The translations under genes were made by a program, and so were the position numbers. Below are positions 36,001 to 57,525 of a stretch of DNA of 64,000 nucleotides, one piece after another. The notes beneath the pieces were generated by a model. The model worked only from the letters and a program-made list of their open reading frames with translations. It did no database searches and had not been told where the DNA came from. This stretch comes from Eledone cirrhosa. Lineage: Eukaryota. Every line of letters starts with the position of its first letter. Positions within the stretch are counted from its first letter, which is position 1. The stretch lies in the NCBI GenBank assembly GCA_964016885.1, contig OZ024741.1, forward strand, positions 187,426,001 to 187,490,000, in the 5' to 3' direction.

Positions 36001-38691
36001 ATGGTACTATTGCTGTTGTTGATGTTACTGTTGCTGTTGTTGATGTTACTGTTGCTGTTGTTACTGTTGCTGTTGTTGATGTTGCTGTTGTTGTTGTTGA
36101 TGTTACTGTTGCTGTTGTTGATGTTACTGTTGCTGTTGTTACTGTTGCTGTTGTTGATGTTGCTGTTGTTGTTGTTGATGTTACTGTTGCTGTTGTTGAT
36201 GTTACTGTTGCTGTTGTTGATGTTACTGTTGCTGTTGTTACTGTTGCTGTTGTTGATGTTACTGTTGCTGTTGTTACTGTTGCCGTTGTTGATGTTACTG
36301 TTACTGTTGCTGTTGTTACTGTTGCTGTTGTTGTTGTTGATGTTGTTGTTGTTGATGTTACTGTTGCTGTTGTTGATGTTACTGTTGCTGTTGTTGATGT
36401 TACTGTTGCTGTTGTTGATGTTACTGTTGCTGTTGTTACTGTTGCTGTTGTTGATGTTGCTGTTGTTGTTGTTGATGTTACTGTTGCTGTTGTTGATGTT
36501 ACTGTTGCTGTTGTTACTGTTGCTGTTGTTGTTGTTGATGTTGTTGTTGTTGATGTTACTGTTGCTGTTGTTGATGTTACTGTTGCTGTTGTTGATGTTA
36601 CTGTTGCTGTTGTTACTGTTGCTGTTGTTGTTGTTGATGTTGTTGTTGTTGATGTTACTGTTACTGTTGTTGATGTTACTGTTACTGTTACTGTTGTTGT
36701 TGTTACTGTTACTGCTGCTGTTGTTGTTGTTATTGTTGCTGTTGTTGTTGTACTGTTGCTGTTGTGGATGTTACTGTTGCTGTTGTTGATGTTACTGTTG
36801 CTGTTGTTGATGTTACTGTTGCTGTTGTTACTGTTGCTGTTGTTGATGTTGCTGTTGTTGTTGTTGATGTTACTGTTGCTGTTGTTGATGTTACTGTTGC
36901 TGTTGTTACTGTTGCTGTTGTTGTTGTTGATGTTGTTGTTGTTGATGTTACTGTTGCTGTTGTTGATGTTACTGTTGCTGTTGTTGATGTTACTGTTGCT
37001 GTTGTTACTGTTGCTGTTGTTGATGTTGCTGTTGTTGTTGTTGATGTTACTGTTGCTGTTGTTGATGTTACTGTTGCTGTTGTTACTGTTGCTGTTGTTG
37101 ATGTTGCTGTTGTCGTTGTTGATGTTACTGTTGCTGTTGTTGATGTTACTGTTGCTGTTGTTGATGTTACTGTTGTTGATGTTACTGTTGATGTTGTTGT
37201 TGTTACTGTTACTGTTGTTGATGTTACTGTTGTTGTTGTTGATGTTACTGTTGTTGTTGTTGATGTTACTGTTGTGATGTTACTGTTGTTGTTGTTGATG
37301 TTACTGTTGTTGTTGTTACTGTTGTTGTTGTTGTTGTTGTTGTTACTGTTGTTGTTGTTGTTGTTGTTGTTGTTACTGTTGTTGATGTTGATGTTGTTGA
37401 TGTTACTGTTACTGTTGTTGTTGTTACTGTTACTGTTGTTGATGTTACTGTTGTTGTTGTTGATGTTACTGTTGTTGTTGTTGATGTTACTGTTGTTGTT
37501 GTTGATGTTACTGTTGCTGTTGTTGATGTTACTGTTACTGTTGTTGATGTTACTGTTACTGTTGTTGATGTTACTTTTGCTGTTGTTGATGTTACTGTTA
37601 CTGTTGTTGTTGTTACTGTTGCTGTTGTTGATGTTACTGTTGCTGTTGTTGATGTTACTGTTGCTGTTGTTGATGTTACTGTTGCTGTTGTTGATGTTAC
37701 TGTTGTTGATGTTACTGTTACTGTTGTTGATGTTACTGTTACTGTTGTTGATGTTACTGTTACTGTTGTTGATGTTACTGTTACTGTTGTTGATGTTACT
37801 TTTGCTGTTGTTGATGTTACTGTTACTGTTGTTGATGTTACTGTTGCTGTTGTTGATGTTACTGTTACTGTTGTTGATGTTACTGTTACTGTTGTTGATG
37901 TTACTGTTACTGTTGTTGATGTTACTGTTACTGTTGTTGATGTTACTTTTGCTGTTGTTGATGTTACTGTTACTGTTGTTGATGTTACTGTTGCTGTTGT
38001 TGATGTTACTGTTACTGTTGTTGATGTTACTGTTACTGTTGTTGATGTTACTGTTGCTGTTGTTGATGTTACTGTTACTGTTGTTGATGTTACTGTTACT
38101 GTTGTTGATGTTACTGTTACTGTTGTTGATGTTACTGTTGCTGTTGTTGATGTTACTGTTGCTGTTGTTGATGTTACTGTTGTTGATGTTACTTTTGCTG
38201 TTGTTGATGTTACTGTTACTGTTGTTGATGTTACTGTTACTGTTGTTGATGTTACTGTTACTGTTGTTGATGTTACTGTTGCTGTTGTTGATGTTACTGT
38301 TACTGTTGTTGATGTTACTGTTACTGTTGTTGATGTTACTGTTGCTGTTGTTGATGTTACTGTTGCTGTTGTTGATGTTACTGTTGTTGATGTTACTGTT
38401 GCTGTTGTTGATGTTACTGTTACTGTTGTTGATGTTACTGTTGCTGTTGTTGATGTTACTGTTGCTGTTGTTGATGTTACTGTTGTTGATGTTACTGTTG
38501 CTGTTGTTGATGTTACTGTTACTGTTGTTGATGTTACTGTTGCTGTTGTTGATGTTACTGTTGCTGTTGTTGATGTTACTGTTACTGTTGTTGACGTTAC
38601 TGTTGTTGTTGTTGATGTTACTGTTGATGTTGTTGATGTTACTATTGCTGTTGTTGATCTTACTGTTGCTGATGCTGATGTTACTGTTGTT
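1..38691. repeat. Giant cryptic trinucleotide satellite (GTT/ACT/GAT/GCT triplets; main units GATGTTACTGTT[A/G]CTGTTGTT, 21 bp, and GATGTTACTGTTGTT, 15 bp); continues off the left edge
   Basis: Direct reading: uninterrupted for 38.7 kb, nearly every triplet ends in T on +; ends at ...gctgatgctgatgttactgttgtt|ttttcttagg. Confidence 0.98.
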
Positions 38692-38780
38692 TTTTCTTAG
38701 GAGTAAAACCCCAAAGCCTCCCTCTGAATTCTACTTGTGAAAAGCAGAAAACTGCGAAACCGATAAAGAACCAAATAAAC
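38692..38780 (+). repeat. Unique ~90-bp tail of the satellite (contains AATAAA); homologous to the inverted copy at 41787-41876
   Basis: cttaggagtaaaaccccaaagcctcc...ccaaataaac is the near-exact reverse complement of 41787-41876. Confidence 0.93.
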
Positions 38781-38891
38781 TATTGTTTAAGCGTCAGTCA
38801 TACAAAAGTGAGTTACAAACGAAACGAAATTTAATTTCGTTTCGTTATTTGTTTTTATCGTCTCCGCTGAACCGGTACGTACTCACGCTCT

Positions 38892-38899
38892 ATGCAAAT
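38892..38899 (+). promoter_or_regulatory. Octamer motif ATGCAAAT in the HHR monomer (present in all three copies)
   Basis: Exact octamer sequence; function not shown. Confidence 0.35.
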
Positions 38900-38984
38900 T
38901 AGTCTGCCCACTACTAATTTTCATTATAAAAGCATATCACGATATGTGCTTTTACGATTCTCTAGAAAGGCCGGAAGATAGGTA

Positions 38985-39029
38985 AATATTGCTGATGAGA
39001 TGTAACAACATCGAAACTAGTCCAATATT
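38985..39029 (+). ncRNA. Minimal type I hammerhead ribozyme (predicted cleavage after GUC, C39022)
   Basis: AATATTG-CTGATGA-GATGT(aaca)ACATC-GAAA-CTAG-TC-CAATATT: intact core, 7-bp stem I, 5-bp stem II, palindromic ACUAGU stem III typical of PLE/retrozyme HHRs. Confidence 0.92.
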
Positions 39030-39242
39030 CCTGTCTGGCTTTCTGGAGAATAGAGGAAAGGTGTTTCCTCGAAAACCAGTATGACTCTAAAAACCGGTTT
39101 GTCTGTGTGTTTACATACAGAATAGCTGGACACTCACAGTAAAGTGTCCAGTGAAAAGCTCGGTACATCTACATATGTACACGTGTGTGTATTCATATGC
39201 ATACTAGTATTTCAGTATACATATGTGGATGTACATTTTTAA

Positions 39243-39244
<2 letters not shown>

Positions 39245-39294
<50 letters not shown>

Positions 39295-39378
39295 ATTGTA
39301 TCTTATATAAATATATCTATATATAATGTGGGTAATATTACAAGTATGAGAATAGCTTAATGTAAAATAATAGGATAC

Positions 39379-39450
<72 letters not shown>
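39245..39450. repeat. (TA)n microsatellite interrupted at ~39292-39381 by a short terminal fragment of the element seen at 46658 onward
   Basis: ttgtatcttatataaat...aatgtgggtaatattacaagtatgagaatag matches 46659-46730. Confidence 0.85.
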
Positions 39451-39453
<3 letters not shown>

Positions 39454-41660
39454 AGTTTTAAATTCTTCCGAGCCGTTCGGCGCATCGAGCAGTAAGTACT
39501 CGCCAACGGTCTCGATCAGCGGCAACTTTTTCGAGACTGCTAGGTGATGTTGACTGCCATCAGGTTCTTCCGGAACGTTCGTCGCCAGGTGATCCTTGGG
39601 CAACCCCGCCACCGTTTACCGCCAGGCGGAGTCCAGTTCATCGCTGTTTTTGAATGCCGTTCATTTGGCAGACGCAGAATATGGCCAGCCAGACGGCACC
39701 GATGCTCCGTGACCACTCTCTCTAGCGTCCACGACTCGGCACTCCGCAGGATCTGCTCGTTTCGCACTCCGTCGCGCCAGGACACACGAAGGATCTTTCG
39801 CAGGCATCGCTGGTGGAAAGCGTTCGGCCGTCTCTCTATTTTTGCCGTACTCTTCCAGGTCTCGCTCGCATAAAGCACTGTCGGCAGCACGATGCTCTTG
39901 TACAGGCGCAGCTTGGTCTTGGTGCTAATGTATGAAGACGACCAGACTGGGCACAGCCGCTGCAAAACTGCGGCTCCTTTGCCGATGCGACAGTTGATGT
40001 CGAGCTCCGCATCGCCGCTGCTTATCAGGATACTGCCCAGATAGGTGAACTGATCGACTTCCTCGAGGTCCTGTTGGTTGACTCTGAACACTGGACCTGT
40101 GTTGCTGGCCGTTCTCATGACCTTGGTCTTTTTGGTGTTGATTCTCAGGCCGATCTTTTCTGCACTCTCTTGTAGGGATGATGTTAGGGCCTGCAGATAT
40201 GCACTGCTTTCAGCGATCAAAGCGATGTCGTCGGCGAATGCCAGGTCCCTCAGCCTCGACTGCCCTCTCCATGGGATTCCTCGACCGGGTCCTTCATCCA
40301 TTCGCCTTTGTACGAAATCGGCTGCCAGCAGGAACAACAGTGGAGAGAGAATGCAACCCTGTCTGACTCCGGAGACAATGTCAGAGAACTCCGTCACACC
40401 GGACTCAGTCCGCACGCAGCAGCTGGAGTTTTCATACAGGGGCTTGAAAATGGCGATGAATCTTGCAGGAATGCCGTACAGTTGCGCAACATTCCACAGC
40501 GACTCCCGGTGTACACTATCGAATGTCTTCTGGAAATCAATAAAATTGAGCGCCAAAGGCTGTTGTAGCTCAACGCATTGTTCGAGAATGTTGCGTAGTG
40601 TAAAGATCTGTTCCGTGCAAGATCGATTTTTTCGGAAGCCGGCTTGTTCCTCCCAGATCTCAGAGTCGACAGCCTGCCGGAGTCGACGCAGCAGCACAGT
40701 GCAGAACGCCTTGCCTGGGACTGACAGCAATGTGATACTTCGCCAGTTGCTGCAATCTGCCAGGTTTCCCTTCTTCGGCAGTTTGACGATGACAAGGCGC
40801 TGCCACTCAAGGGGAACCCGACCAACTCTCCAGCAGTAGTTCATCAAGTCTGTCAACGCCGTTATCGTGCTCTCCTCACCGAATTTGAGCAGCTCAGCAG
40901 AGATCTCATCCAGTCCGCCTGCTTTGCCGTTCCTCAAGTGGCTAATCGCATCTCTCGTCTCTTGCTTGGTGATATGGTCCTTGCAGACTTTGAGTACCTC
41001 AGTGGTTGCTGGGGTCTCTGCGGTCATATCTATCAGGGCGACCAGATTTGGTTGGTTCAGCATCTCCCGGAAGTGCTCCATCCATCTCTGCTCCTGTTCC
41101 GCTCCAGTGGTCAATGTCTTGCCATTTTTTGTCTCTCACTGGCATGCTGGCACCGCTCGACATTCCTGTCAACTCCCTCACGATGCGGAACAGTGCTTTT
41201 GTATCGTTTCGACCAGCAGCTTCCTCTGCCTCAGCACCCTTTTTCTCCAGCCAGTGACGTTTGTCCAACCGGCAGCTTCGCTTTACCTGTCGGTCGATTT
41301 GGCAGAATCTCGCTCGACATTTGCCTTTTTCGTCTGTCAATCAGGTCCCACGTTGGTTCTTGGATCCATTTTCCCTCCTCGTTCCTCGACTTCGGCCAGT
41401 AGTTCCTTGTGCTGCCTCAGTCACTGCTGTTGTGAACATCGTCCATTGATCTTCCAGATCTGCAGCCTCACTCAACTGTTGGAATCGGTTGCGTAGCGCC
41501 AGTTGGTACAATCGCGCTTGACCGGTATACTTCAGCTACTCCACTGCATATGGCTTTCGTCTTTCCGGTCTTGTCCGTTTCTTCAGGCGCAGCTGAAGTT
41601 CCGCACACATTAGGTGGTGGTCTGAGCCCACGTCTCACCTCGGTACACTCTGACGTCACA
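39451..41660 (-). mobile_element. 5'-truncated RTE-clade non-LTR retrotransposon (LINE)
   Basis: Begins in the APE endonuclease C-terminus (DVRVYRG..DVGSDHHL, frameshifted), then an RTE linker (DRQVKRSCRLDKRHW), RT, and a C-terminus DRDRWRVL..RC; 3' end runs into (TA)n; GC-rich relative to flanks. Confidence 0.93.
39540..41114 (-). pseudogene. RTE reverse transcriptase domain (524-aa open segment of a disrupted ORF)
   Basis: Motifs KKGNLADCSNWRSITLL, EEQAGFRKNRSC, FIDFQKTFDSV, GVRQGCILSPLLF, FADD, FTYLGS; upstream frameshifts and a premature stop at 39540. Confidence 0.92.
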
Positions 41661-41876
41661 TATATATGAAAGTGAGCCTTTTTTTACAAAATGAAAAAAA
41701 AAAAGGTGTCCTAAACAAGTGAAAGAATAAGAAAAATGGATGAAATCGTAAATGCAACTGTAGTCTTTTTTTTATAAAAAATATATGTTTATTTGGTTTC
41801 TTTATCGGTTTCGCAGTTTTCTGCTTTTCACAAGTAGAATTCAGACGGAGGCTTTGGGGTTTTACTCGTAAGAAAA

Positions 41877-42077
41877 AACAACAGTAACATCAGCATCAGC
41901 AACAGTAAGATCAACAACAGCAATAGTAACATCAACAACAGCAACAGTAACATCAACAACAGTAACATCAACAACAGTAACAGTAACATCAACAACAGTA
42001 ACAGTAACATCAACAACAGCAACAGTAACGTCAACAACAGTAACATCAACAACAGTAACATCAACAACAGCAACAGT

Positions 42078-42120
<43 letters not shown>

Positions 42121-42542
42121 GTAACAGTAACATCAACAACAGTAACAGTAACAACAACAACAACAACAACAACAGTAACAACAACAACAACAACAACAAC
42201 AGTAACATCAACAACAGTAACAGTAACATCAACAACAGCAACAGTAACATCAACAACAGTAACATCAACAACAGTAACAGTAACAACAACAACAACAACA
42301 ACAACAGCAACAATAACAACAACAACAGTAACATCAACAACAGTAACAGTAACAACAACAACAACAGTAACAACATCAACGACAGTAACATCAACAAGAG
42401 CAACAGTAACAACAACAACAACAACAACAACAGTAACAACAACAACAACAGTAACATCAACAACAGCAACAGTAACAACAACAACAACAACAGTAACAGT
42501 AACAACAACAGTAACAGTAACAACAACAACAACAACAACAGT

Positions 42543-42576
<34 letters not shown>

Positions 42577-42907
42577 GTAACAACAACAACAACAACAGTA
42601 ACAACAACAACAGTAACATCAACAACAACAACAGTAACATCAACAACAGCAACAGTTTACATCAACAACAGTAACAATAATAACAGCAACAGTAACATCA
42701 ACAACAACAACAGTAACATCAACAACAACAACAGTAACATCAACAACAACAACAGTAACATCAACAACAACAACAGTAACATCAACAACAGTAACATCAA
42801 CAACAGTAACATCAACAACAGCAACAGTAACAACAACAGCAACAGTAACAACAACAATAGCAACAGTAACAACAACAATAGCAACAGTAACAACAACAAT
42901 AGCAACA
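41877..42907 (-). repeat. ~1-kb inverted copy of the giant satellite (AAC-rich on +)
   Basis: Same triplets and the identical diagnostic terminal variants (actattgct..gatcttact..gctgatgctgat) as 38640-38691. Confidence 0.95.
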
Positions 42908-43088
42908 ATACTAGTATGCATATGAATACACACACGTGTACATATGTAGATGTACCGAGTTTTTCACTGGACACTTTACTGTGAGTGTCCAGCTATTCTG
43001 TATGTAAACACACAGACAAACCGGTTTTTAGAGTCATACTGCTTTTCGAGGAAACACCTTTCCTCTATTCTCCAGAAAGCCAGACAGG

Positions 43089-43133
43089 AATATTGGACTA
43101 GTTTCGATGTTGTTACATCTCATCAGCCATATT
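43089..43133 (-). ncRNA. Hammerhead ribozyme copy 2 (one stem I mismatch)
   Basis: Reverse complement reads AATATGG-CTGATGA-GATGTaacaACATC-GAAA-CTAG-TC-CAATATT. Confidence 0.88.
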
Positions 43134-43258
43134 TACCTATCTTCCGGCCTTTCTAGAGAATCGTAAAAGCACATATCGTTATATGCTTTTTCTATGAAAA
43201 TTAGTAGTGGGCAGACTAATTTGCATAGAGCGTGAGTACGTACCGGTTCAGCGGAGAC

Positions 43259-43892
43259 TGAAAAACTCGGTACATCTACATATGTACACGTGTGTGTATT
43301 CATATGCATACTAGTATTTCAGTATACATATGTGGATGTACATTTTTAACTTAATTGTTTAAGCGTCAGTCATACAAAAGTGAGTTACAAACGAAACGAA
43401 ATTTAATTTCGTTTCGTTATTTGTTTTTATCGTCTCCGCTGAACCGGTACGTACTCACGCTCTATGCAAATTAGTCTGCCCACTACTAATTTTCATTATA
43501 AAAGCATATCACGATATGTGCTTTTACGATTCTCTAGAAAGGCCGGAAGATAGGTAAATATTGCTGATGAGATGTAACAACATCGAAACTAGTCCAATAT
43601 TCCTGTCTGGCTTTCTGGAGAATAGAGGAAAGGTGTTTCCTCGAAAACCAGTATGACTCTAAAAACCGGTTTGTCTGTGTGTTTACATACAGAATAGCTG
43701 GACACTCACAGTAAAGTGTCCAGTGAAAAACTCGGTACATCTACATATGTACACGTGTGTGTATTGATATGCATACTAGTATTTCAGTATACATATGTGG
43801 ATGTACATTTTTAACTTAATTGTTTAAGCGTCAGTCATACAAAAGTGAGTTACAAACGAAACGAAATTTAATTTCGTTTCGTTATTTGTTTT

Positions 43893-43895
<3 letters not shown>
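43259..43895 (+). repeat. Head-to-tail tandem of the HHR monomer, period 465 bp
   Basis: aagcgtcag at 43361 and 43826; aaaaactcggtac at 43261 and ~43726. Confidence 0.92.
43557..43601 (+). ncRNA. Hammerhead ribozyme copy 3
   Basis: Identical to 38985-39029. Confidence 0.92.
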
Positions 43896-43934
<39 letters not shown>

Positions 43935-43973
43935 CATATATATATACATATATATATATACATATATATATAC

Positions 43974-44050
<77 letters not shown>

Positions 44051-44051
44051 C

Positions 44052-44120
<69 letters not shown>
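43893..44120. repeat. (TA)n/(TACA) microsatellite
   Basis: Direct reading. Confidence 0.97.
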
Positions 44121-44127
<7 letters not shown>

Positions 44128-44589
44128 AAAATAGTTAGTTATGAACATTCCAATAACTTAAAGAAAAGACCTAGATACAAGATACGTTTCTCTATCTATT
44201 ACTAGTAATATTCCTAAACTATTTTTTAGGGCCTTAGATAAATGCTTCCATCCCTCGCATACCTATAGTAAGATCTTTAACAAACATACAATCAAATTCT
44301 CTTATTCCACCACTTCCAACATCTCTAACATTATCTCTAAACATAATAATAAAATATTAAATAATAAATTATATCCATCCAATACTGAGCGTCATAATAA
44401 TAGCAATAGTAAACCCGACGTCAATGTTAACTCTAGGCTAGATTCTGTAAATTTAAATACGACGTCAAACGTTCATAACACCAATCTAAATCAGGAAACT
44501 TTAGTACCTATCGTAAATAACTTCTCCAATCCTATTCCTTCTATAAATAATACTAGGTCACTTGTTAATAACTCTGGTAATTTCTCTAA

Positions 44590-45025
44590 TCGTAATTGTA
44601 ATTGGCCTGTTAGAACTAAATGTCCTCTTAGTAACCAATGTCTTGATAAAAACTTAGTGTATGAATCAAAGGTTATAACTAGTACTAATTCTTTTACCTA
44701 TTTTGGTTCCACTTCCACTTCCTTTAAAGCAAGATTTTATAATCACAAGTCGTCTTTTAAATACCAACTTAAAAGAACTAACACGGCACTCTCAGAACTC
44801 ATATGGTCCTTAAAAGACAAAAATATTAACTACAACATTTCTTGGATGAAGGTTTGCAACGCCTCTCCTTACCAGAATTCTTCCCTATCCAGAACATGTA
44901 ATCTCTGCCTAGCCGAGAAATTTACCATTATTTCTAATTTTAATTCTATAATAAATAGACGTACTGATTTATTTTCGCTCTGCTTGCATAAATCCCATAG
45001 AACTTTCCATAAAGTATACAGCTAA
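44590..45025 (+). pseudogene. PLE GIY-YIG endonuclease domain remnant
   Basis: NLVY...YFG, FKARFYNH, TALSELIWSLKD, CNLCLAEK motifs. Confidence 0.85.
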
Positions 45026-46012
45026 TATCTTACTACCTAATTAGTTTAAAATCTTCTTTTCTCAAACGCTTTTATATCTTTTACAAATATACCCATCTTT
45101 CTACCTTATTTCAGTATATTATATTATACAATTTACTCATTCTATGTCGTTAGCGTTCCCCTATTTTTCTTCTTTTTTATCCTTTTTTCTTTTTTAATTT
45201 CTAATCTTTAATCTGTAACTTTTACTTCTCAATTACTTCTTAATTCATATTATAACTCACTATAGCATTTTCCTTATATTCTTGGCCATACAAACTATAT
45301 TTTTAATATATACTAATATTACCATTAGTAAATTTTGTAAACATATATTTTTTTTGACGTTATATATTTTTTCTTCCTTAAATTTTCCTCTTTCTTCTCT
45401 CCTTCTGTGCTCGTATTAAACCTATTATTTACTTTTTCCTATTACAATACATAGAAAAAAACTTGGACCCTAACTAATTCCTCTAAGTTCATAATTCATT
45501 TAACCTTTTCTTCATTCACCTTATCTCCTTAATATTTTTTTATTTTAATAATACATATTAATAAACTCCTTTTCGCACATATTATTAAACCCTTCAATAT
45601 ATAAACCTTAAATAAATACTATTCTTAATTCTTTTTTCTTTAATCATAAACATCACCATTCATAAACCTCATTAACTTTTAATTTCAAATTTTTTTTAAA
45701 ATTATGTATTGTCTTACAACGGATTTTTTTTCTCTATGAGAGAGTGTTTCTCAGTATTAAAGGTTATCTATCTCTCTCTCACTAATTTTCTCCTCCTCTC
45801 TCATCCTTCCTTTTATGCTCCTCCTGCATCATCCTTTCCTTATTATTATATTTTTTATTATTATTATTTTCTTTCTTCCTCTTCCTTATCTTTTCCTTCC
45901 TCCTTCCTTCTTTTTTTCTCAATCCCATATATCCATCTTATTTTATTTTTCATATGTTGATTTAACACTTCACTGCTCGCAAGTGTTTTTTAAGCTTCAT
46001 ATCATGTCGCCC

Positions 46013-46083
46013 TATTTTATCTGATGAGAACGCAAATATCATCCCATGATGATATTTGTCTTTGAAATGCGCATAATAAAATA
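46013..46083 (+). ncRNA. Type I hammerhead ribozyme at the PLE 3' end (predicted cleavage after AUA, 46075)
   Basis: TATTTTAT-CTGATGA-[caaatatcatc/gatgatatttg stem II]-GAAA-TGCGCA-TA-ATAAAATA; perfect 8-bp stem I, palindromic stem III. Confidence 0.88.
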
Positions 46084-46113
46084 CATAGAACTCTTTTAAC
46101 CATCTTTTGATCT

Positions 46114-46366
<253 letters not shown>

Positions 46367-54959: not shown

Positions 54960-57525
54960 TTAAGCTGGTCTAAAGTTCTCAAATTTGGTGCAGAAAATAA
55001 TTTTTTCAATTTTACTGTTAAGTAGCATTTTGTTGTAATTTAAAATTGGGAAAAGTTCCATATTACAAAGACCACAGTGGGACATGCCAAATCGATAGGC
55101 CATTGCTGTTGATAGCTTCGTCCAGCTGATTTTATATTCCATGTTTGCATCTCTGAGTTGCCAGATTTTATTGGCGAGAGTTGTTGTATTTATGAGCTTC
55201 CTGTTATTCATAGAGTGTCTATGGACATACCACCTTTTCTTAAACTCCCCAGCTGTAGATCCTATGTAGTGCCATGTTAAGCTGCCTGAATTTATAGTAC
55301 ATAGGTATATTATATTTGACTCTAGGCATCCATTTTGTAATGGGCATTTGTCAGGTAGATGCCCGTTACATTTAGATGCCTTCCTATGTGCCGGTTTTTC
55401 TATATGGTTTTGTAAATTGTTATGTACGGGCTAGGAATTGGGTTTCTTGATGTATTGTGGTGATGTGTTCTGGCGTGTGTTTGGTTGTGATGATGTTATA
55501 TGCTTATGTTTTGTATTTAGTGTTATGGTACTTATTTGCGGGCTACTTGTATTATAAACTCTCTTATAGTTAATTTTATGCATGTGCGATTCTATGTTGT
55601 TGTAAGTGGAGTATGATAGTTTGATGGTTTTTCTATTAAAGATTTTATGATATTTATGAATTTTAGGGAAGTGTTTGTCAACTAATTTGAAGAAAGTGTA
55701 AGGTAGTTTTGTTTTTATAGAGGAGTTAAACACTGGATTGAACCATAAGTACTTTCTATCTCTGCATCTTCTATAGTTATTAGTGGTCTTTATATTAGTA
55801 TTCTGTTCAATTAATTCTCGTGCTTGTTGCCAATTTTTATGTTTAGTCCTAGATTTGTTGCTTCTATAGGTGTGGATAGTGCTATTAATATTAAGTGTGT
55901 TGTTATTTTTTTGTATCTGGTATGTATTTGAGTCTCTCTTTATGGCCTGCCTTAAGTAAAGCTATGTTATAGTAGTTAGCGTGTTCGTTAAAAATCACTA
56001 GATTAGAAGATAGGCGTGAGATTCTAAGGGATATGCTATGTGCTATGGAATTAATTATGAATCGAGGGTGATTAGAGTTATAATTAATGTAAGCTAAATT
56101 TTCATTATTTTTATGGAAGGGTTCTATTAGTCCTGGGTTTAGGTTAAGTGATACATCTAAGAAGTTAGCTTTTTTAGAGTTGAGTTCAAAAGTGATGTTA
56201 AGGCCCAATTTATTAAAGAATTTTCTAATCTTTTTCCGTAATCTTTCTAATGTTTGATTATTTAGGTTTTTAGCTAAAAGTAATGTATCGTCTCTATAAA
56301 TTCTTCCTTGTAGGTTATCAAATTTCTTATGCAAGATATGTGCTATATAAATTCCGACAATGTCCGTAACTTGGGCTGAATCATTTGATCCCATAGTTAT
56401 ATCGAAGTTATTCTGTTTATTTTTTCTTTCCCTGTAACTATTGTCGAATTTAATGATTGTTCTTTTAGCAGCTAGTATTATTTTAATTTCCTCTGGTGAA
56501 AGGTCAGAGTTTTTTTGTGCAAAGGATAGTGCCTTATTTAGGATTACAGGGGAAATAGAAGAGTAGTAGTCATTAATGTCAAATTGTATGAAGTCGGAAG
56601 ATTCTCTATTGTCTAATTTATTAAACCAATCTATTGCTTCCTTAGTGTTACCCCAGAGCTTGATTATTAGTTTTTCTTTAATTTGTGGTACTATTCTATT
56701 TAGTATAAACTTGCTAATTCTGCCTATATCTGATTTTGATAGACATATTAATCTAATAGTAGGGTCAGTTTCAAAGTTACATTTATGATCTTTCAGATTA
56801 AAAGTGGGTTTACAAGACGTTAGAGGTTCGGTTCTATCAGATATTTTAAGTTTTTTTACTATGTTAAGTCTTTCCTTATTAATGCTATTGAGTGTGGACT
56901 CTGTAGTTTTCTTGTATTTTTATGTAATTCCCGGTGTATAAAGTTGGTGTATATATTAAGGTTCATGGTGTATACGTTTGATGTTTTGTCTGCCTTTACT
57001 ATAATACCGTTGGTGTTACGTAATTTTTTTAGTAGTGCATTGATGTTATTTTGCAGTTTGTTATGATGTGTTCGTTTTTTTAAATTTAGTTTCCTTTATC
57101 ATGTTCATGAGGTCAAGTTCAAAGGCATCAAGTTGTGGATTGCTCAGTAGATTTTTGCAGGATCTAAACCCATATTTTTCACTGGTAGACTCATTATTTC
57201 TATCATTATTATTATTGGATTGGCAGTATCGGTGGAGGGTCGGACATAGTTACGTCCCTTTACGATCTGAGTTCAAATCCCGCCGAGGTTGACTTTGTCT
57301 TTCATCCTTACGGGGTCGATAAAATAAAGTAGCAGTAATGCACTGAGTAATTGCTGGCCTTGTGCCTAAAGTAGAAACAATTATTATGTCCTTTATCGTA
57401 ATGATATGCTTTCCATCTGATTCTACGGATAAAGTCATTAGTTCTTTGTATCATACCGAGCGTATATTCCTTATTTGTAGGTATTGGTATGTTTTTAAGG
57501 ACATTCCTATGTAGTGTCTTTCCAT
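54960..57525 (-). pseudogene. PLE ORF: N-terminus, RT, thumb, GIY-YIG endonuclease (frameshifts, stops, SINE insertion)
   Basis: SLK.IPIPTNKEY..FIRRIRW; MGSNDSAQVTDIVGIYI; RIYRDD; NFLDVSLNL; SNHP; DKHFPK.HKYHKIFNRKTIKLSYS; KCN..KCPLQNGCLESNIIY..HYIGST..FKKRW; CGLCNME. Confidence 0.9.
57217..57387 (+). mobile_element. SINE inserted into the PLE ORF
   Basis: Same SINE family; PLE-like sequence on both sides. Confidence 0.87.

Follow-up and report, generated by a model that had tools for sequence, protein, structure and literature searches.

A putative non-LTR retrozyme family of Eledone cirrhosa with a Penelope-like insertion footprint

The idea that Penelope-like elements (PLEs) reverse transcribe the circular RNAs of retrozymes into tandem cDNA was put forward in 2020 (PMC7229834, Discussion), and a preprint by Li et al., which reports units of 51–972 bp, has since concluded that retrozymes are PLE derivatives, and suggests that their tandems are amplified locally (10.64898/2026.07.22.740005). 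PLEs themselves are described as having a one-sided tail, an inverted head-to-head copy, 5' truncations and partial tandems, and as inserting into (TA)n targets (PMC8557442, PMC3846280). The PLE of the green anole cleaves both strands and extends each of them, has a preference for ATT, and uses two reverse-transcription start sites that bound the tail (PMC11167929). The hammerhead ribozymes of PLEs are reported to be of a minimal type, either without helix III or without the contact between loops 1 and 2 (PMC7761336), and to be universal in Hydra elements (PMC8557442); what these hammerheads and the tails do is treated there as an open question. Both the retrozyme class and its link to PLEs are, therefore, already published; what the family from Eledone cirrhosa described below adds is mechanistic evidence.

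The DNA analysed here (the window; 64,000 nt) corresponds to contig positions 187426001–187490000 of a 3.0-Gb assembly, and it holds three copies of a 465-nt unit, numbered such that unit position 1 is window position 38782 (equivalent to 43354). Copy A (38782–39243, plus strand; unit positions 1–462) had been flagged in an earlier note on this DNA as a tandem monomer, but it is a solo unit: its 5' end abuts the truncated arm of a different repeat, and its 3' end runs into a (TA)n tract (39245–39450), the likely target. Copies B and C make up a single head-to-head pair. The left arm, B, lies at 42907–43258 on the minus strand and covers unit positions 79–430, whereas the right arm, C, lies at 43259–43895 on the plus strand and comprises 1.37 units (positions 371–465, 1–465 and 1–77), terminating at what we refer to as the long end within a second (TA)n tract (43893–44125), again the likely target. 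The outer end of B is atypical, in that it is joined to a CAA satellite and has no short end. The proposed period of 465 nt is confirmed by C, in which 171 of 172 letters match at lag 465 over 43259–43895. All three of the near-identical copies that had been listed are indeed present, and all match the Rfam model HH9, but B is partial and on the minus strand, and A and C are not independent: they have in common a variant 29-mer that occurs only twice genome-wide, and, therefore, one has been locally copied or converted from the other. The whole unit is predicted to fold much better than shuffled sequences (z = −10.2; 0 of 100 as stable). There is no open reading frame of at least 100 codons within the window copies, and the RT plus GIY-YIG frame of an autonomous PLE is thus absent. 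No arm in the window carries two hammerheads, a feature by which non-LTR retrozymes are recognized and which the family displays elsewhere.

Other repeats surround these copies. A GTT-rich 21-mer satellite extends over 38.7 kb (1–38688), with a 1-kb inverted copy at 41879–42907; both blocks join the same short repeat (38660–38789 and 41775–41908; 95% identical), which indicates an older local inverted duplication. Another short element, with arms at 41660–41870 and 38690–38781, also sits in (TA)n and is older (85–88% identity; 1,583 candidates); at several of its loci, two opposed arms end at two sites ~67 nt apart. A 531-codon LINE reverse-transcriptase frame, presumably RTE-like, occupies 39540–41135 on the minus strand (RVT_1, E 2e-32), with a 3' end that uses the same (TA)n run as copy A.

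Each copy contains one hammerhead, namely, at 38974–39044 (plus strand) in A, at 43074–43144 (minus strand) in B, where one helix I pair is broken, and at 43546–43616 (plus strand) in C. The CUGAUGA/GAAA/GUC core that had been recognized in A is borne out at 38992–39022, and the predicted cut falls at the position given previously, after C39022 and immediately before CAAUAUU; the equivalent site in C would be after C43594. Helix I consists of seven pairs, a UA bulge and then, as had been described, a long extension (MFE z = −4.97; 0 of 200 shuffles as stable). Helix II is formed by GAUGU and ACAUC, and helix III is a single A-U pair capped by CUAG, which together make up the reported ACUAGU palindrome. 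The term 'minimal' does not, however, apply to this motif, as the reduction is confined to helix III, with helices I and II at full length. A strict hammerhead descriptor finds two matches in 38660–64000 and none in each of 200 shuffles. In the Rfam search that had been suggested, the three copies match HH9 with 33.7, 33.7 and 30.2 bits and E values between 9.4e-6 and 1.3e-4, the match at 9.4e-6 being full length, although none of these reaches the gathering score (52).

Taken together, the sequence features identify the motif as a type I hammerhead of the newt/axolotl type, with full helices I and II and a one-pair palindromic helix III. It is set apart from the minimal PLE-type hammerhead by its full-length, covarying helices I and II, and by the bulge within helix I. 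The closest likeness for helix III is HHR_Amex1 of the axolotl, which also has a single pair with a palindromic tetraloop and which, although called canonical, performs poorly as a monomer but well as a dimer (PMC7229834). A similar behaviour is predicted here: in the folded circle, helices I and II form with calculated probabilities of 0.65–1.0, the helix III pair has a probability of 0.0 in the monomer and the ACUAGU duplex is assigned −4.8 kcal/mol, and, therefore, a dimer is predicted. The earlier suggestion that the palindromic helix III calls for a dimer is thus likely to be correct, judging from the predicted pairing. For comparison, eight of the nine dimers that Li et al. report having tested did not cleave (10.64898/2026.07.22.740005). 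Covariation was scored over seven rows taken from subfamilies and a 432-nt sister family: 91% of the cells are paired and 6 of the 15 hammerhead pairs have changed on both sides, against 0–1 in slid controls. Because the rows are related and represent essentially two families, these counts amount to only two or three independent events. Elsewhere in the unit, at positions 113–120, the octamer ATGCAAAT is a candidate promoter element, for which newt satellite 2 provides a precedent; the octamer is found in the 432-nt sister family too, and is altered in the youngest lineage.

With a short non-coding tandem unit, one type I hammerhead in each and many dispersed loci, the family is, as judged from its sequence, a non-LTR retrozyme. 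The genome holds 1,633 exact matches to the 31-nt core (control 0), whereas the exact junction between unit position 77 and (TA)n, which defines the long end, occurs 2,283 times (control 0), the core count being the lower because of core variants. The junction near unit positions 3–9, the short end, is found 585 times on the forward strand, the reverse-strand count being inflated by multiple gap lengths. Short-end junctions are, therefore, about half as frequent as long ends, which implies that many insertions are without a sizeable second arm. The best 40 scored copies are 98–100% identical, and one identical 468-nt unit, the mark of the youngest lineage, is common to five loci inspected; these figures support the view taken previously that this is a young non-LTR retrozyme family. 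In the youngest lineage (L175 and L251–L255), the triplet at the cut site is GUU, as opposed to GUC in the window unit, alongside a helix II pair that has switched from A-U to U-A by compensatory change; GUU at this position may weaken hammerhead cleavage. The sister family, with a unit of 432 nt and 2,604 candidates (L096:117-548; L141–L165), has the same ACUAGU, a GUU triplet and a U-U mismatch at the base of helix II.

The geometry of insertion was analysed over 48 merged loci, made up of the 30 best BLAST matches together with every locus to which the first 100 core matches on contig C1 belong. Thirty-one of these have two arms arranged head-to-head, and none is tail-to-tail. One long end (66–78) is paired with one short end (462–9) in 27 of the 31 two-armed loci, long with long and short with short are each seen in 0 of 31, and the other four, including the B and C pair of the window, have an eroded or cut end. 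The 17 single-arm loci divide into 10 long, six short and one cut. A further set of 20 loci, most of them chosen by their long end, includes seven that are long plus short, one with a left arm that is only partly covered, and one that consists of two convergent pieces 2.2 kb apart. There are, then, two fixed 3' ends ~70 nt apart, each in (TA)n, with the short end falling at ATT. The 'tail' that they delimit (unit positions ~4–77; 43822–43895, plus strand, in copy C) contains a 13-bp hairpin. By contrast, the 5' ends are scattered. The arms read through the ribozyme cut site, and the notion that genomic ends lie at the ribozyme cut was rejected, as only 1 of 79 5' ends falls within 239–245 (1.2 expected), with no pile-up. 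At the inner junctions between arms (n = 39), the arms overlap in 25 cases, are blunt in three and are separated by intervening letters in 11. A possible 9-bp target-site duplication was discerned by eye at one locus (L007), although the (TA)n flanks generally mask duplications. Fixed 3' ends, a one-sided tail, 5' truncation, a head-to-head copy and a microsatellite target are together the insertion footprint of a PLE, insofar as it can be read from genomic sequence.

An inverted arm might also arise by fold-back, with a single cDNA priming itself, possibly on an antisense template, such that there is no second target-primed cDNA; this has been proposed for the head-to-head junctions with palindromes of rotifer PLEs (PMC3846280). 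The distribution of the 5' ends gives it some encouragement, since 18 of 79 lie at positions 10–60, around the tail hairpin (8.7 expected), and the two 5' ends are no more than 25 nt apart in 4 of the 31 two-armed loci; a haplotype common to both arms, as documented below, would fit as well. Nevertheless, the 5' ends lie at unrelated unit positions in the remaining 27 of the 31, either arm can be the longer, and a separate fixed 3' end in (TA)n belongs to the second arm, such that we consider fold-back very improbable as compared with two target-primed cDNAs.

The same two-ended layout is seen for an autonomous element of this genome. Intact PLE frames of 808 codons are present, and the 794-aa protein has RWK, DKT, CxCX5C, CxxC and CxH, a set given as the marks of the Hydra clade (PMC8557442); the frames are not recognized by Pfam and were placed by motif. 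This PLE was inspected at 20 loci, of which 10 are two-armed with both ends visible (by eye), and in nine of these 10, one arm terminates at the first and the other at the second of two fixed sites, both in (TA)n, with no pair of like ends. The two fixed ends are 171–176 nt apart, versus ~70 nt in the retrozyme. For the 432-nt sister retrozyme, which has homologous end sites, 16 of 24 loci are two-armed (by eye), and these comprise 10 that are clearly mixed, two that are probably so, one that is short/short and three with an eroded end. No hammerhead core was found by the descriptor used in the young intact Hydra-type PLE family (L121–L140). Several further PLEs were noted. The 3' part of a Hydra-like PLE at 44126–46115 (plus strand) ends in (TA)n and has its own hammerhead core at 46021, with a palindromic UGCGCA helix III; the minus strand has a related core at ~48821. 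A broken Hydra-like PLE in three frames at 54960–56919 (minus strand) was the query that found the intact family, and a very young canonical PLE family (L216–L235) has 777-codon frames, with 120 scored copies that are 99–100% identical.

The reading of the unit as the pLTR of the adjoining PLE (44126–46115), or of three other PLE families, was rejected, as no similarity was found. The search covered 100 loci from four PLE families, out of tens of thousands of PLE candidates in the genome, and gave no similarity to the unit or tail, save for nested retrozymes and TA-rich noise. Based on the target and the geometry, a Hydra-clade PLE is our best guess for the partner. One could instead suppose that the family is DNA-only, being either a satellite or a rolling-circle element, or that it is a pseudo-LTR that became detached from an autonomous PLE so far unseen; the hammerhead would be a passenger in any of these cases. 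Local DNA copying does seem to have taken place between A and C, and the four PLE families covered by the partner search are part of the genome's set. Against this, the combination of fixed 3' ends, variable 5' ends and anchoring in (TA)n is as seen in an RT-encoding element of the same genome, the unit has no long reading frame, and none of the 20 loci chosen by their long end, irrespective of the ribozyme, has a PLE frame joined to the unit in place of further units. We attach the least credence of all to these DNA-only and passenger scenarios, and are highly confident that the insertion step was carried out by a PLE.

The nature of the template is addressed by the arms themselves. The mean distance between the two arms of a locus is 0.86%, as against 2.4% between loci (29 of the 31 pairs were measurable), the window arms B and C being an exception, with no minor allele in common. 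In a subfamily that is ~90% identical to the window unit, 31 variants are common to both of its arms. The youngest lineage provides the longest arrays: the C18 locus has arms of 17.6 and 8.0 units, with 22 of 23 full units identical (the 17.6-unit arm has 16 identical full units), and the C1 locus has arms of 6.9 and 13.0 units, with 17 of 17 full units identical; other loci have 8.8 units, 10.8 units, and at least 4.7 plus 2.0 units. A marker for this lineage has 71 genome matches at seven loci, and none of these lies in an arm longer than that of 17.6 units. Because long homogeneous arrays with one haplotype are present at several loci, it is for the longest arm alone, and only within this assembly, that a linear multimer can be excluded as the template. 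For the same reason, a private-haplotype test for circles was set aside, since both markers are multi-locus (71 and 33 matches) and linear sources are not excluded by it. Older arrays contain repeated variant blocks that represent local duplications and, therefore, growth at the DNA level also occurs. The spacings had suggested multimeric-circle templates; these were rejected because the variant blocks are local, irregular and not common to the arms.

The variants fixed at a locus differ from those confined to single units, in that 68 of 88 are transitions as compared with 113 of 242 (p = 8e-7), and 26 of 88 break predicted pairs as compared with 112 of 242 (p = 0.008). Only 1 of the 88 falls in the 17 core positions (3.2 expected), which is a weak signal, the loci having been partly selected on the core. 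The transition-rich and pair-sparing character of these sequence variants points to an RNA-level filter or mutational step, although it is no proof of circles. Moreover, A>G accounts for 14 of 28 locus-unique fixed variants versus 24 of 242 private ones (p = 1e-6). The asymmetry between sense A>G and T>C (14 versus 6) is not significant (p = 0.076), and, as selection friendly to G-U pairs fits equally, scars of RNA editing are not claimed.

A long, uncut, linear array transcript could also have been presented to the same two-strand PLE insertion machinery, in which case the ribozyme would be weak or incidental, and long arrays would arise by DNA duplication. This would sit well with the green-anole PLE, where insertion is unaffected by hammerhead mutants and unprocessed RNA is the main substrate (PMC11167929), and with the axolotl, where a one-pair helix III is a poor monomer cleaver (PMC7229834); in Eledone, source arrays of the same haplotype exist, older arrays have local duplications, and the youngest arrays carry the GUU triplet. 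Yet 5'-truncating copies can only shorten arrays, and the 17.6-unit arm is without a longer source in the assembly; furthermore, the hammerhead pairs covary and, albeit weakly, fixed variants seem to be sparse in the core. A monomer circle accounts directly for long identical arms, whereas a linear template requires either that a longer source is missing or that the DNA expanded rapidly. The GUU of the youngest lineage is compatible with uncut multimers as much as with stable circles. On balance, we regard the linear template as unlikely, but as the most serious competitor to the circle.

We therefore favour, as the probable explanation, a retrozyme inserted in trans by the RT-endonuclease of a PLE, probably of the Hydra clade, acting from both sides of a break on what was probably a circular monomer RNA; the circle step is less supported than insertion by a PLE, although it is still the better bet. 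Arrays would be transcribed, adjacent hammerheads would pair via ACUAGU and cut the transcript to monomers, and a host ligase would close these to circles. The PLE endonuclease would then nick both strands of (TA)n, with one cDNA initiating at around position 77 and the other at around positions 3–8, and each would run for a variable number of laps before the two were joined end to end, often via short microhomology. Local DNA duplications would be added later in older arrays. A bolder version, which we hold only tentatively and rate somewhat below even, is that two PLE RTs operate on opposite strands, each with its own obligatory start, on one monomeric hammerhead circle for up to ~17 laps, and that the change from GUC to GUU in the youngest lineage tunes the ribozyme down so that circles last. 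If true, this would be genomic evidence that a viroid-like RNA of an animal retrotransposes by a rolling-circle route, and it would offer a strand-specific explanation of the PLE 'tail'. The family gives exact predictions, namely, starts at ~77 and 3–8, one per strand, a (TA)n target and identical units per event; moreover, as the same genome offers a lineage of very recent origin and candidate enzymes that are intact, the model is testable in vitro.

The strict pairing of one long with one short end, and the identity of both arms, were not found for retrozymes in the literature searched, outside of which lay subscription papers and bioRxiv supplements; likewise, the literature search on cephalopod hammerheads gave no description of this two-arm rule. 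In common with the metazoan non-LTR retrozymes, the Eledone family consists of non-coding tandems of low GC content, with one type I hammerhead each and no LTR (PMC7229834). The unit of 465–468 nt is above the ~170–400 nt given there, but inside the 51–972 bp of Li et al. (10.64898/2026.07.22.740005). For those retrozymes, the accessible text of PMC7229834 makes no mention of paired arms that stop at two fixed points in (TA)n; conversely, expression and circles have been demonstrated for them and are predicted for the Eledone family. The family resembles the EN+ PLEs in its 5' truncation, inverted head-to-head copy, one-sided tail, (TA)n target and two start sites that bound the tail (PMC8557442, PMC3846280, PMC11167929), and it departs from them in having no ORF, a tail of ~70 nt rather than 30–40, arms of up to ~30 units, and a full-size rather than a minimal hammerhead. 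Finally, whereas the preprint of Li et al., in whose accessible text insertion ends are not analysed, links retrozymes to PLEs via co-occurrence and pLTR similarity, the link made here is via the geometry of insertion.
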